Positions 9,353-11,931 of a stretch of DNA of 64,000 bases are shown here, in pieces (the first letter of the stretch is position 1; each line of letters opens with the position of its first letter). Made by a program: the position numbers and the translations under genes. The DNA is from an uncultured Planctomycetaceae bacterium (lineage in GTDB: Bacteria; Planctomycetota; Planctomycetia; Pirellulales; PALSA-1355), in NCBI GenBank assembly GCA_964598535.1, contig CAZRCI010000028.1, forward strand, positions 1,489 through 65,488. Direction: 5' to 3'. The notes beneath the pieces were generated by a model. It was not told the DNA's origin. It worked only from the letters and a program-made list of their open reading frames with translations, and did no database searches.

Positions 9353-9814
9353 TTAGCAGCAGCCGCAGCAAACCGGCGTGCCCTGGAACGACACGTAGCA
9401 GCAGCAACCCGAATCCAAGCACTTGGCCAGGCAGTCGCAGCAAGCTTGGATCATGTCGCAGCAGGCCTTATCGCCGCTCTTGCAGGTGATGCACACGCCG
9501 TCCTTGGTCGGCTCGCAGGTGCAAATCCCGCAGCATAGGTTGCACATGCACACGGTCATGCCGTTGAGCGTGCAGCAGCAACTGCACAGGCCGTCGCACA
9601 GCGCCTTGCACAGGTTCTGTAGCGTGAGGCACGAAACCTCGTCGTCGCACACGCAGTGGATTTTCATCCCGCCCGCGCACTTCTCGACCTTCATCGTGCA
9701 ACGGGGCACAACGCAGTAGTTGCCGGCCGTGGGGGCTGCGGTCGTGGGAGCGTGTCCCGCCGGCGAGTGCGAAGCAGCACCAAAGAATGTCCGTTCCAAA
9801 ATCGCAGTGCTCAT
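9353..9814 (-). CDS. extremely cysteine-rich protein (153 aa, ~33 Cys), possible metal-binding; family unknown
   Basis: ATG at 9814 with GAAAGGA 7 nt upstream. Almost all codons end in G/C and every Cys codon I read is TGC. Contains CC/CCC/CxC and C-x3-C-x3-C runs and ends in VCCGCC. Confidence 0.7.
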   Translation of the reverse strand: MSTAILERTFFGAASHSPAGHAPTTAAPTAGNYCVVPRCTMKVEKCAGGMKIHCVCDDEVSCLTLQNLCKALCDGLCSCCCTLNGMTVCMCNLCCGICTCEPTKDGVCITCKSGDKACCDMIQACCDCLAKCLDSGCCCYVSFQGTPVCCGCC

Positions 9815-10359
9815 AGCAAAAATCCTTTCGCTTGCCTGAGTACCTGTTGCCGTCCGGCGAAGGCTCACATGATGTGTGTCGTGAGCGGCGGAAACGTTCC
9901 GTCTAGAAGGCGACAACTTGTGCTCGGGGTGAATCCCGCGTCGCTCTGGTCATCCAGTCGCCGACGCATCAAAACATCGGAACCATCCACAGAGGTCTCC
10001 CGCGTGTCCGGGTCGACGCTATGCAAGCAGCGAATATAAGCCAGCGCGGCTAGCATAGGCAATGGCGGTTTACGCAGAATTTGCGGCAGCGGCGAACTTT
10101 GCGGGACTCTCGGAGGATGCGGACCTCCAATCTTGAAAACCGAGGCAATGTCATGCCTCTCGTTCGCCGCGCTAGCTATAGATAGTCGATAAACATGGTC
10201 GTGAAGGTGACCATCGAGCATGGCATGTGTGTGCTGACAGCAGCTTGTCACCTTGAACGCGAGTGCATCTTGGGCGGTGGGATTGGAACGAGCGGTCGCG
10301 AAAAAAATCACAGGTGCTAGCTGCTGTCGGCCGATAGATGGCGAAGGAGTCCCCCGGAA

Positions 10360-10605
10360 ATGTTTGCCAATCGTATCACCCGCTATTCGAATCGCATGGA
10401 CGCCTTCCTGCCACCTCCGCCGCCTTCTCAGCCGCAGGTCACGGCTCAAACGCCCGCGCCCCCGGCCGGCTTTGTTGTCTGCCCGCTTCACGTTGCCGTG
10501 GCCACGGCCTGGCAACAAGAAGTCTATCGCCGGGCATACGAAGATGCGGTTGCCCGCGCTCAGACGCCGCGCATCTTTCGGCGAATGTTCTCGAACTGGA
10601 ATTAG
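10360..10605 (+). CDS. hypothetical small protein (81 aa), Pro-rich centre
   Basis: ATG 10 nt after GAAGGAG. More natural composition than the overlapping frame 10338-10634. No family recognised. Confidence 0.35.
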   Translation: MFANRITRYSNRMDAFLPPPPPSQPQVTAQTPAPPAGFVVCPLHVAVATAWQQEVYRRAYEDAVARAQTPRIFRRMFSNWN

Positions 10606-10827
10606 CAGGGCTGCTGAAAAAGTCAGCCGCCTGACGAGAGCCTCTCCTCCCGTTCCGGTTCGCTCGAACGTCGGCTTTGTTGCGATCACCAATCCTCAGC
10701 AACTTGCGCCACGCCTCCTGTGCGCGAGGGGCGGCGGCCGGATCTTCCCCTAGCATGTCCGGGGCTGCTAGCCGATAATGGCCGCCTGCCATTTTGGTCC
10801 GCCGATATTCGAGGAGCGATTGCCGCT

Positions 10828-11931
10828 ATGAAAGGCCTTGCTGCCCTGCTGGTTGCCATTTTTCTGGCTATGTTCTGCTGGGGCGTCTATGGACCGGTGC
10901 TCGCCGTGGGGCGTGCGGGCATGGAAGGCAGCTCGCTGAAGCCGTTCATCTGTGTCGGCATTGCCTATTTTCTCATCGCGGTGCTTGCCCCGATCGTCAC
11001 CTTGCAACTCAAGGGCGAAACCGGCTATTGGAGCTCGACCGGTATTTTCTGGAGTCTGGCCGCTGGCGCTGCTGGCGCGTTGGGGGCCCTGGGAATCATC
11101 CTCGCGCTCGCCTTTCGTGGCAGCCCGATCTACGTCATGCCGTTGGTGTTCGGCGGTGCTCCGGTCGTGAATACCTTTCTCACGATGTACTGGAGCCGCT
11201 CGTTCAAACAGATCAACCCCGTGTTCATCGCCGGGCTGATCCTGGTGATTGTCGGCGCGGTCACGGTGCTGATCTTCCGCCCGCAAGGCGGCCACGGCCC
11301 CGCGCCCGCTGCGCAGGCCAGTGACCACGCGACCCCCGCCGCGGCCGCCACGGAAACGCCCGCCGGCGAGGCGAATGCACAGCGCCGAGCGATTGGCGCC
11401 AATGAATCCCCCCTGCAACGCTGGGGGATGGTGACCATCTTCACCGCCCTGACCGCGCTCTCCTGGGGCGTCTATGGACCGACGCTGCATCGTGGGCAAA
11501 TGGCGATGGCCGGTAGCCGGCTGCGGCCCTTCATTTGCGTCGGCGTTTCGTACTTTCTCATGGCGGTGATCGTGCCGACCTTGATCTTGCTCCAGTGGGC
11601 AGAGCCCGGACGTTTCACCTTTACGGGAACCATCTGGAGCCTGGCCGGCGGAGCCGCGGGCGCCATCGGCGCGCTAGGCATCATCATGGCCTTCAACTTC
11701 GGCGGAAAGCCGATCTTCGTGATGCCGTTGGTATTCGGCGGGGCCCCGGTCGTGAACACCTTCGTGAGCGTGACCCAGGCCGGCCAGTGGGGAGACCTGC
11801 ACGCGATGTTCTTTGCCGGCTTGATTGTCGTTGTCGCCGGCGCGGTGACCGTGCTGGTGTTCGCGCCGAAGCCGGCTCCGCACCATCCGCCGGTCGAAGA
11901 CAAACCAGACCCCGGGGCGGCGCCCGCTTAG
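10828..11931 (+). CDS. integral membrane protein with internal 5+5 TM duplication (DMT/EamA-like permease topology)
   Basis: ATG 11 nt after GAGGAG. The two halves align: WGVYGP...PFICVG...PI(Y/F)VMPLVFGGAPVVNTF. Halves are joined by an Ala/Pro-rich linker. Confidence 0.75.
   Translation: MKGLAALLVAIFLAMFCWGVYGPVLAVGRAGMEGSSLKPFICVGIAYFLIAVLAPIVTLQLKGETGYWSSTGIFWSLAAGAAGALGALGIILALAFRGSPIYVMPLVFGGAPVVNTFLTMYWSRSFKQINPVFIAGLILVIVGAVTVLIFRPQGGHGPAPAAQASDHATPAAAATETPAGEANAQRRAIGANESPLQRWGMVTIFTALTALSWGVYGPTLHRGQMAMAGSRLRPFICVGVSYFLMAVIVPTLILLQWAEPGRFTFTGTIWSLAGGAAGAIGALGIIMAFNFGGKPIFVMPLVFGGAPVVNTFVSVTQAGQWGDLHAMFFAGLIVVVAGAVTVLVFAPKPAPHHPPVEDKPDPGAAPA

Follow-up and report, generated by a model that had tools for sequence, protein, structure and literature searches.

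The 64-kb window considered here (64,000 nucleotides of contig CAZRCI010000028.1 from an uncultured Planctomycetaceae bacterium, meant as a whole wherever we write "the window") encodes a 153-aa protein, MSTAILERTFFGAASHSPAGHAPTTAAPTAGNYCVVPRC...PVCCGCC, of which 21.6% is Cys. We describe this gene on the minus strand, the structured RNA leader that precedes it, and a small divergent partner gene (Table 1), and weigh what the protein may be for. All 33 Cys fall within residues 34–153, where they are grouped as CC, CCC, and CxC clusters (33 Cys in 120 residues). The three His residues sit outside the Cys-rich part or at its margin. Ten neighboring genes have a mean Cys content of 0.99%, and the binomial probability of at least 33 Cys in 153 residues is ~7e-34.

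An earlier note, drawn from the DNA alone, had called this a real gene, and the 687 homologues, conserved Cys columns, and homologue transcripts described below agree. Its hand count of about 33 Cys in the last ~120 residues, its reading of the Cys codons as TGC (33 of 33), and its impression that codons mostly end in G or C (GC content at third codon positions of 0.83, against 0.62 overall) all stand. The GAAAGGA that it placed upstream of ATG 9814 is present, at a measured spacing of 8 nt in place of the 7 nt given, and its GC hairpin and T6 terminator correspond to a 13-bp GC-rich stem followed by T6. No signal peptide had been noticed, in keeping with an N-terminus that lacks a hydrophobic signal-like stretch and with the disorder that AlphaFold2 predicts for residues 1–34. 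The mechanically longest open reading frame (ORF) begins at TTG 9916, which we rejected as the gene start; ATG 9814 was assigned because homologues keep both MSSAxLLER, as their N-terminus, and the ribosome-binding site at that codon. A spurious-ORF reading was likewise rejected, given the conserved homologues and the homologue transcripts.

Table 1. Features of the Cys-rich gene locus and instances of the leader element (window positions unless a locus, L, is named; CDS, coding sequence; UTR, untranslated region; pLDDT, predicted local distance difference test)
Feature	Position	Strand	Basis
CDS of the 153-aa sulfur-rich protein (33 Cys, 6 Met)	9353..9814, stop codon included	(-)	Translation; 687 homologues; homologue transcripts
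N-terminal peptide (MSSAxLLER in the family) and variable Ala/Pro-rich disordered linker, residues 1–34	9713..9814	(-)	Alignment; pLDDT
Repeat 1, residues 36–95, predicted hairpin-helix-hairpin	9530..9709	(-)	AlphaFold2; hhalign
Repeat 2, residues 96–153, second predicted hairpin-helix-hairpin	9356..9529	(-)	AlphaFold2; hhalign
Shine-Dalgarno-like GAAAGGA, 8 nt before ATG 9814	9823..9829	(-)	(G/A)AAAGGA kept in most homologous loci
Intrinsic terminator, 13-bp GC-rich stem then T6 (stem and tail at 9317-9286), 3' of the stop codon	9280..9317	(-)	Homologue RNA coverage ends just past the stop codon
Sigma-70-like promoter, TTGCCT-18-TATATT	10033..10062	(-)	AATTGC..N17-18..CTTATATT kept in close relatives
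5' UTR, ~210 nt: leader element plus further hairpins kept only among close relatives (e.g., ACGGAACGUUUCCGC)	9815..10025	(-)	
Two-hairpin leader element at the mRNA 5' end	9934..10030	(-)	Covariance model R1, 56.3 bits, E = 1.4e-8, sole match in the 64-kb window
P1 of the window element, GUC-GA-CCCG..CGGG-A-GAC	~9995-10017	(-)	
P2 of the window element, GCGUCG-GC-GA-CUGG..CCAG-A-GC-GACGC	~9938-9967	(-)	
Partner gene, 81 aa (MxANRI..Pro-rich linker..WQQEVYRRAYEDAVA..RRMFSNWN), divergent	10360..10605	(+)	Profile of relatives
Element instances	L013 12023-12104, L016 14571-14660, L020 14585-14672, L021 12783-12872	(-)	
Element instances	L022 4767-4853, L024 13085-13175, L040 964-1056, L059 4734-4819	(-)	
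Element instances	L037 6610-6699, L074 11849-11937	(+)	
Further element instances	L094, L103, L124, L125, L128, L129, L132, L157		

The protein family and its predicted fold

We searched 5.8 billion proteins and found 687 homologues. Nearly all have 150–160 aa, are covered over their full length, and are unnamed or annotated as hypothetical; every homologue with a source name was assigned to Planctomycetia, Pirellulales, or Planctomycetota. A profile search against 1.84 billion cluster representatives gave only 186 clusters, and the family is therefore narrow. When one genome per species was surveyed (185,579 species), relatives were found to be encoded at 207 loci, and the 80 of these that were listed all belong to Planctomycetota (Pirellulales, Gemmatales, Planctomycetaceae). 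Nearly all of the listed 80 come from metagenome-assembled genomes whose names cite soil, peat, or groundwater; they include a single cultured carrier, Anatilimnocola sp. NA78 (NZ_CP187419.1, locus L070), which also has the partner and the leader, and several genomes with two copies of the gene. The family is new, narrowly distributed, highly conserved, and found only in Planctomycetota. Our literature searches found nothing on this family, on a bacterial sulfur-storage protein, or on the leader RNA element. Judged by its sequence, the protein appears to be categorically new in kind, and the function put forward below is a proposal.

Conservation across the family is strong, with a mean column identity of 65% in a 36-sequence alignment. 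The Cys positions, whose conservation the earlier note had proposed to test, are conserved in orthologues: among 155 full-domain members, most of the 33 columns reach 75% Cys or more, and twelve of them 90% or more. Many polar residues are also near-invariant (E44, K45, D58, Q66, N67, N84-G85, E101, D115, and Q123), and the fold or an interface is therefore under tight constraint.

The note had also left a transcript as something to be sought. Metatranscriptome k-mer matches to a 75%-identical homologue (L005) were obtained in 20 runs from peat, soil, wetland, permafrost, and sediment, and the assembled RNA contigs cover its leader and CDS. These contigs span only positions 9835-10462 of the L005 locus, that is, the predicted leader plus CDS, with the flanks unmapped; they start ~20 nt past the predicted start site and end just after the stop codon. 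The gene is transcribed singly, as a monocistronic unit from its own promoter. Assembler word depth in one peat run ranged from hundreds to ~1000, a figure that pools several related species at 85% identity and so reports expression of the family and not of this exact gene. The window organism itself was matched in metagenomic DNA runs only, and RNA-seq runs were found neither for it nor for Anatilimnocola sp. NA78.

Searches for a known family gave no matches for the window protein in Pfam-A or NCBIfam at E ≤ 10; metallothionein and DUF326 models matched none of 36 homologues (E ≤ 1 for DUF326), and PDB sequences gave no match by either single sequence or profile. An AlphaFold2 model built with the 36-sequence alignment has a pLDDT of ~85–95 (about 90) for residues 35–150 and below 50 for residues 1–34. 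Eight strands and two helices are predicted: strands 38–46 and 49–56, helix 59–72, and strands 78–83 and 86–92 in repeat 1, followed by strands 97–102 and 106–112, helix 116–134, and strands 138–143 and 146–151 in repeat 2. Within both helices, Cys recurs at i/i+7. When residues 36–95 were compared with residues 96–153 using hhalign, 46 columns aligned in the same register at 33% identity (P = 3.7e-4), which, with the repeated predicted topology, substantiates the internal duplication that the earlier note had proposed. Foldseek found no relative with E < 0.02 in the PDB (best E 0.46, TM ~0.2) or BFVD, with TM scores of ~0.2–0.3. The predicted fold, a duplicated beta-beta-alpha-beta-beta unit, is thus new. 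That the note could name no family is matched by the empty Pfam, NCBIfam, PDB sequence, and Foldseek searches. Its suggestion of a Csp-like bundle of Cys-lined helices fared less well: the structure prediction it had named as a check yields an alpha/beta fold, and the helix-face picture is unsupported because AlphaFold2 predicts only two helices alongside the eight strands, with no match in the PDB or BFVD. If the model holds, a fold that tolerates a core of nearly all Cys or Met would matter to protein design as well as to the chemistry of metals or sulfane sulfur.

We compared the protein with established classes of Cys-rich and related proteins, and none was retained. Membership of the Csp family (Pfam DUF326) was rejected on the lack of a profile match and of a four-helix bundle in the AlphaFold2 model. 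The likeness to Csp1 and Csp3 would lie in the replacement of a hydrophobic core by thiols. The Csps are thiolate-lined four-helix bundles, whereas our protein is predicted to run beta-hairpin, helix, beta-hairpin twice over; no hidden Markov model (HMM) similarity connects them, and the genomic context described below is sulfur assimilation and not copper. The Cys count of a Csp is about half of the 33 found here. SmtA, with ~55 aa, arranges 9 Cys together with His ligands around one Zn4 cluster. Proteins of the SmtA/BmtA type (Pfam Metallothio_Pro) are likewise Cys-rich, cytosolic, and small; the protein in the window differs in that it lacks any HMM match at E ≤ 10, carries 33 Cys with hardly any His, and has a duplicated domain of 120 aa, and this type was rejected on the absence of a Pfam or NCBIfam match together with the 153-aa length and duplicated domain. 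Eukaryote-type metallothioneins were set aside for want of a Pfam match and for the confident alpha/beta prediction. A precursor of a ribosomally synthesized and post-translationally modified peptide (RiPP; SCIFF or NHLP/Nif11 type) was rejected since no NCBIfam or Pfam model matched and no maturase or exporter cluster recurred in 81 loci. A secreted, cystine-rich envelope protein of the YTV type was rejected since the N-terminus is not hydrophobic and Pfam-A, which includes YTV, gave no match, and a cargo of encapsulins or microcompartments was rejected since no such neighbors occur among the clustered loci. As for the Csps, Csp3 is cytosolic and has no signal peptide, and the group as a whole is small, with many Cys facing the core of a stable fold (PMC10155185).

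What the Cys positions represent emerges from remote members, which were recovered by the profile search and aligned to the family model. In low-Cys relatives, only C39, C139, and C149 persist (often also C54), and the other 29 of the 33 positions are occupied by Leu, Val, Ile, Phe, Met, Ala, or small or polar residues. Another set of homologues has Met in place of both Cys and hydrophobic residues (P0184, P0242, P0183, P0145, P0146, and L085 1136-1654). The highest Met content is that of P0184, with 44 Met among 114 domain residues (39%), and P0242 contains 55 Met in 169 aa; in these Met-rich members the N-terminal linker is also rich in Met (poly-Met/Gly), and transcripts of Met-rich variants are present in soil metatranscriptomes. 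Cys plus Met make up a median fraction of 0.29 of the domain across the 155 full-domain members, and between 0.25 and 0.47 in more than 85% of them. Because 29 Cys positions are hydrophobic or Met in relatives and the combined Cys and Met content is high, sulfur richness itself is the family trait, which, as far as sequence comparison can tell, would consist of sulfur side chains at burial-tolerant positions and not of a fixed ligand pattern. Since hydrophobic residues fill the same positions in relatives, the Cys are probably core-facing. Sequence and model together suggest a cytoplasmic, compactly folded, and extraordinarily sulfur-rich protein.

The leader RNA and its sulfur-assimilation context

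The leader was found by aligning the upstream regions of close relatives, in which the first 90 nt form two similar hairpins. Their consensus is GCC-GA-CCCG..CGGG-A-GGC for P1 and GCGU..CU-GA-CUGG..CCAG-A-GG..ACGC for P2, so that the element consists of two nearly identical hairpins whose internal loops are GA/A and whose terminal loops vary. In a hand-checked alignment of 21 sequences, 94% of cells are paired and 9 of 17 pairs are compensatory, and slid partners are ~40% paired. The corresponding values for 67 model-aligned instances, an alignment biased towards the model, are 95.5% and 16 of 17, with slid controls at 35–55%. The leader RNA structure is real. Rfam 15 gave no match by cmscan at E ≤ 1, either for window positions 9815-10062 or for ten other element loci. 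Minimum free energy folds of the leader differ between lineages, and no intrinsic terminator lies within the window leader. We regard the leader as a candidate sulfur-responsive riboswitch or protein-binding element; its two hairpins could bind a metabolite or a protein, a protein effector being equally possible.

In 50 of 81 loci, the covariance model of the element, R1, has a match (E ≤ 0.01) upstream of the Cys-rich gene. These loci also hold second sites, which follow the DUF2292 gene at the end of the sulfate transporter operon and precede BON, DUF1559, and lipoprotein genes. From metagenome contigs, a pattern scan added 17 loci with a confirmed R1 instance (E < 0.001), where the downstream genes encode outer-membrane anion porins (Porin_O_P or Porin_5), a protein like acyl carrier protein (ACP), DUF1559, a lipoprotein, a TonB-receptor-like protein, and one member of the Cys-rich family. 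Several of these loci place the element among sulfate-uptake and Cys-synthesis genes, in the orders sbp-cysT-cysWA-[element]-porin-cysK-cysE, cysWA-[element]-porin...cysK, cysA-[element]-porin, and sbp-cysT...[element]-ACP-[element]-porin. The RNA element is found across several bacterial lineages. A weak R1 match (28.6 bits) beside pstS/pstA may be unrelated.

On the porin mRNAs, the placement of the element suggests a mechanism. The region around the porin start codon (CAUGCGUACC; N-termini MRT...) is a complement of the P2 3' tail (GGUACGCnAUG), as seen in L125, L132, L129, L103, L128, and L094. Duplex energies range from -9 to -15.6 kcal/mol, and 6 of the 10 cases rank among the lowest 5% of shuffled controls. 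We infer that P2 formation would free the porin start codon. A role for the P2 3' strand as the porin Shine-Dalgarno sequence was rejected, as a separate AGGAG lies nearer the ATG. The element abuts the start region in the porin genes and stands 65–130 nt from the ATG in most Cys-rich leaders.

Two comparisons with known RNAs can be drawn. SAM (S-adenosylmethionine) riboswitch classes and the sul1 motif also lie upstream of genes for sulfur metabolism or sulfate transport, and they differ in that the present leader has no Rfam 15 match (E ≤ 1) and a two-hairpin architecture of its own. The iron-responsive element (IRE) of ferritin and transferrin-receptor mRNAs is a regulatory analogue only: one short hairpin element with a conserved internal loop occupies different positions on the mRNAs for uptake and for the putative store. 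There is no sequence relation to the IRE, and the pairing of the porin P2 tail with the start codon region resembles a riboswitch platform and not blocking by an iron regulatory protein.

To examine the gene neighborhood, all ORFs from 81 loci were clustered. Besides the partner, the recurrent neighbors are a sulfate ABC transporter (Sbp, CysT, CysW, CysA), a DUF2292 gene, and DUF1559 genes; no metal-homeostasis genes are among the recurrent neighbors at these loci. At least two transporter components lie within 10 kb at 13 loci, and DUF2292 alone, 90–630 nt away, at 4 loci, so that a sulfate transporter and/or DUF2292 is found within 10 kb at 17 of 81 loci (21%), against a chance expectation of ~0.3% per locus by our own estimate for a ~7-Mb genome. 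The arrangement of the transporter varies (downstream convergent, upstream, or 145 nt away), and in the lineages with this proximity the Cys-rich proteins are 50–65% identical to one another. NCBIfam confirms the transporter components and cysteine synthase; the DUF2292 match to OscA is below the NCBIfam cut-off (36 bits against 85). OscA has been linked to a sulfate transporter and the sulfur-starvation response (PMC2996968). The OscA/DUF2292 gene is a frequent neighbor of the Cys-rich gene and ends cysPTWA in other loci, and its product is not homologous to the Cys-rich protein or to the ~80-aa partner. Together, the shared leader RNA and the recurrent proximity of cysPTWA/oscA mean that the gene context points to sulfur assimilation, where the earlier note had thought of metal or redox buffering.

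Two kinds of gene behind the element merit separate mention. Operons of DUF1559 (with an N-terminal methylation motif) and a ~140-aa lipoprotein follow it at L074 11849-14987 (+), L037 6610-8606 (+), and L022 3176-4853 (-), with a sulfatase next in one locus, a hint that sulfur acquisition is the task of some of the very numerous DUF1559 proteins in Planctomycetes. A copy of the element also belongs to a gene for an ACP-like (PP-binding) protein of ~150–190 aa at L124 6119-6803 (-) and L157 ~10950-11498 (-), where that copy lies directly upstream of a second copy and a porin, near sbp/cysT.

The partner ORF lies ~550 nt upstream of the Cys-rich gene on the opposite strand and, by profile, adjoins it in 61 of the 71 loci with enough upstream sequence. 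Its orientation is divergent in 58; in 3, including Anatilimnocola, it is directly downstream on the same strand. Loci without it are mostly second copies in two-paralogue genomes. The locus of a Met-rich homologue retains it, the one informative case among contigs of Met-rich and low-Cys members, which were otherwise too short or had no DNA to inspect. The partner has no Pfam match, and its database relatives are all hypothetical. AlphaFold2 predicts one long helix (42–78) that a Pro-rich disordered linker connects to a short helix at the N-terminus. C-terminal extensions of remote homologues of the Cys-rich protein, compared as possible fusions, show no resemblance to it. A role as adaptor, chaperone, or regulator is possible. 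In one sub-clade (L031, L035, L036, L042, L043, L044, L046, L047, L054, and L058), a gene for an extracytoplasmic function (ECF)-type sigma factor lies 1.0–1.5 kb upstream, beyond the partner and on its strand, as at L046 7814-8410 (-), with ~900 nt free of any clear ORF between the ECF-type and partner genes.

Candidate roles of the Cys-rich protein

We tentatively read the protein as a Cys or sulfur sink or reservoir coupled to sulfate assimilation, a proposal to which we give somewhat less than an even chance and which is ahead of any other we considered. The protein would belong to the sulfur-assimilation regulon. When assimilated sulfur is available, Cys would be deposited in a folded protein that is stable and non-toxic and has Cys, or in some lineages Met, at its core positions; under sulfur shortage, the protein would be degraded and its sulfur released. 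Candidate handles for this turnover are the conserved N-terminal peptide with its disordered linker and the small partner. An ORF with 33 Cys codons needs plentiful Cys-tRNA, and deposition would therefore track supply even if its mRNA were produced at the same time as those of the uptake genes. The leader is placed differently on the storage and uptake mRNAs, and it could therefore yield different outputs on each. The thiol-lined core may also hold metal ions or sulfane sulfur. A more specific version, which we consider unlikely as it stands, is a "sulfur ferritin": a protein with a Cys/Met core that would bank sulfur under reciprocal control with uptake genes through one shared RNA element, not described before and placed differently on the storage and uptake mRNAs, in soil and peat Planctomycetes living on scarce, pulsed sulfate.

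The nearest functional analogue is found in plants, where sulfur-rich seed storage proteins such as the 2S albumins are selected for high Cys plus Met and accumulate with sulfur supply. The Planctomycete family, with 25–47% Cys plus Met in its domain and with Cys and Met interchangeable, would be an analogue in function only; sequence, fold, organism, and compartment all differ, and sequence conservation in the family far exceeds that usual for storage proteins.

Several observations weigh against a sulfur reserve. The conservation (65% column identity and invariant polar residues) exceeds what pure storage needs, and it suggests a precise ligand, cluster, or partner interface. The strongest caveat is that a sulfur-responsive leader could be mere economy, shutting off a costly protein when sulfur is short, in which case leader control says nothing of the protein's role. 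The Cys-rich leaders have neither P2-tail complementarity to the ribosome-binding site or start codon (median shuffle rank 0.41) nor an intrinsic terminator, and we therefore regard them as the same sensor module with a different output. No sulfate transporter lies within the 64-kb window, and the locus of the Met-rich homologue gives no R1 match. Finally, we know of no precedent in bacteria for a dedicated protein sulfur reserve.

An alternative is a soft-metal thiolate store or buffer, metallothionein- or Csp-like, in which Cu(I), Zn(II), or Cd(II) would be held in large numbers by the core Cys or Met and the leader would only gate costly synthesis. It is the main rival because leader control may reflect cost and because the conservation suits a defined thiolate cluster; overall we find it doubtful, if far from negligible. 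The 33 Cys per 120 residues in CC, CCC, and CxC clusters would make a dense ligand set, the Cys-to-Met homologues would still supply soft ligands, three or four Cys are invariant across the superfamily, and conservation this high is in keeping with a cluster of defined geometry. A metal store would, however, have to be reconciled with metallothionein and DUF326 models that match none of 36 members, a predicted alpha/beta fold with no helical bundle, and recurrent neighbors that, like the shared RNA element, belong to sulfur assimilation and, across the 81 loci, include no genes for copper, zinc, or cadmium efflux, chaperones, or sensors. His is a frequent co-ligand in bacterial metallothioneins and is nearly absent from this domain. 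In favor of the metal store, Cys occupy positions that are hydrophobic in relatives and would probably face the core, as they do in the Csps (PMC10155185). Should the protein prove to be a metal store after all, it would add a third, structurally unrelated solution to those of the metallothioneins and the Csps, carrying about double the thiols of a Csp.

The same neighborhood can also be read as protection. A sacrificial thiol buffer made together with sulfate uptake, acting against oxyanions that enter via CysPTWA (chromate, selenite/selenate, or tellurite) or against oxidative stress, would fit the frequent position of the gene beside oscA-like DUF2292 genes and cysPTWA; in Pseudomonas corrugata, losing oscA, which is located with the sulfate transporter, causes Cr(VI) sensitivity (PMC2996968). 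Cys and Met are both oxidizable and repairable, which fits the Cys-rich and Met-rich variants alike. Buried core thiols would scavenge poorly, though, thioredoxin, Msr, and chromate or selenite genes are not among the recurrent neighbors, and the OscA match is the sub-threshold one noted above; we judge this account improbable. More improbable still is a regulatory gauge of Cys supply, in which the ORF would be translated only with abundant Cys-tRNA and the product and its partner would feed back on sulfur-starvation genes. Tight pairing with a small, non-globular helical protein, mostly divergent as in regulator–target pairs, the highly conserved surface polar residues, and sulfur-regulon membership through the shared leader would all suit a gauge. 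It has to contend with the lack of a detectable DNA- or RNA-binding domain in either protein, with an apparent transcript abundance that is very high for a regulator, and with an RNA element that works in genomes lacking both proteins. We see hardly any likelihood in a secreted or modified peptide, either an envelope protein rich in disulfides or a RiPP precursor that bears its leader at the N-terminus. Planctomycete envelopes are cystine-rich, and a conserved N-terminal peptide and linker followed by a Cys-rich "core" recall such precursors; against this stand the absence of a signal peptide or hydrophobic segment, the confident globular fold predicted for the "core," the lack of radical-SAM, cyclase, protease, or exporter genes among recurrent neighbors, and the lack of any NCBIfam or Pfam precursor or YTV match.

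If the sulfur-reserve reading is correct, the protein would be, as far as we know and our literature searches show, the first dedicated bacterial protein store of sulfur, a counterpart to the nitrogen reserve cyanophycin, the phosphorus reserve polyphosphate, and the iron store ferritin. Such a reserve would also account for the way in which Planctomycetes abundant in soil and peat endure sulfur scarcity. The leader RNA gives direct access to the sensing of sulfur status in bacteria outside the CysB paradigm. Besides the SAM classes, we know of no metabolite-sensing RNA for sulfate or Cys status, and with the element a question of long standing can be put to a direct test.

Other features of the window

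Two further ORFs overlie the leader or CDS, at 9865-10692 (-) (275 aa) and 9423-9719 (+) (98 aa); both are high-GC artefacts, and alternative-frame ORFs over the CDS group across loci only as a by-product of the gene's own conservation. The neighboring genes in the window are unrelated and encode a beta-lactamase-family hydrolase, an SDR, a Gfo/Idh/MocA oxidoreductase, HtrA, DksA, and a duplicated membrane protein. Another observation concerns positions 10720-11931 (+), which encode a 403-aa multi-pass membrane protein without a Pfam match. It consists of two similar halves separated by an Ala/Pro-rich linker, and each half carries GVYGP..L(K/R)PFICVG..FGGAPVVNTF.

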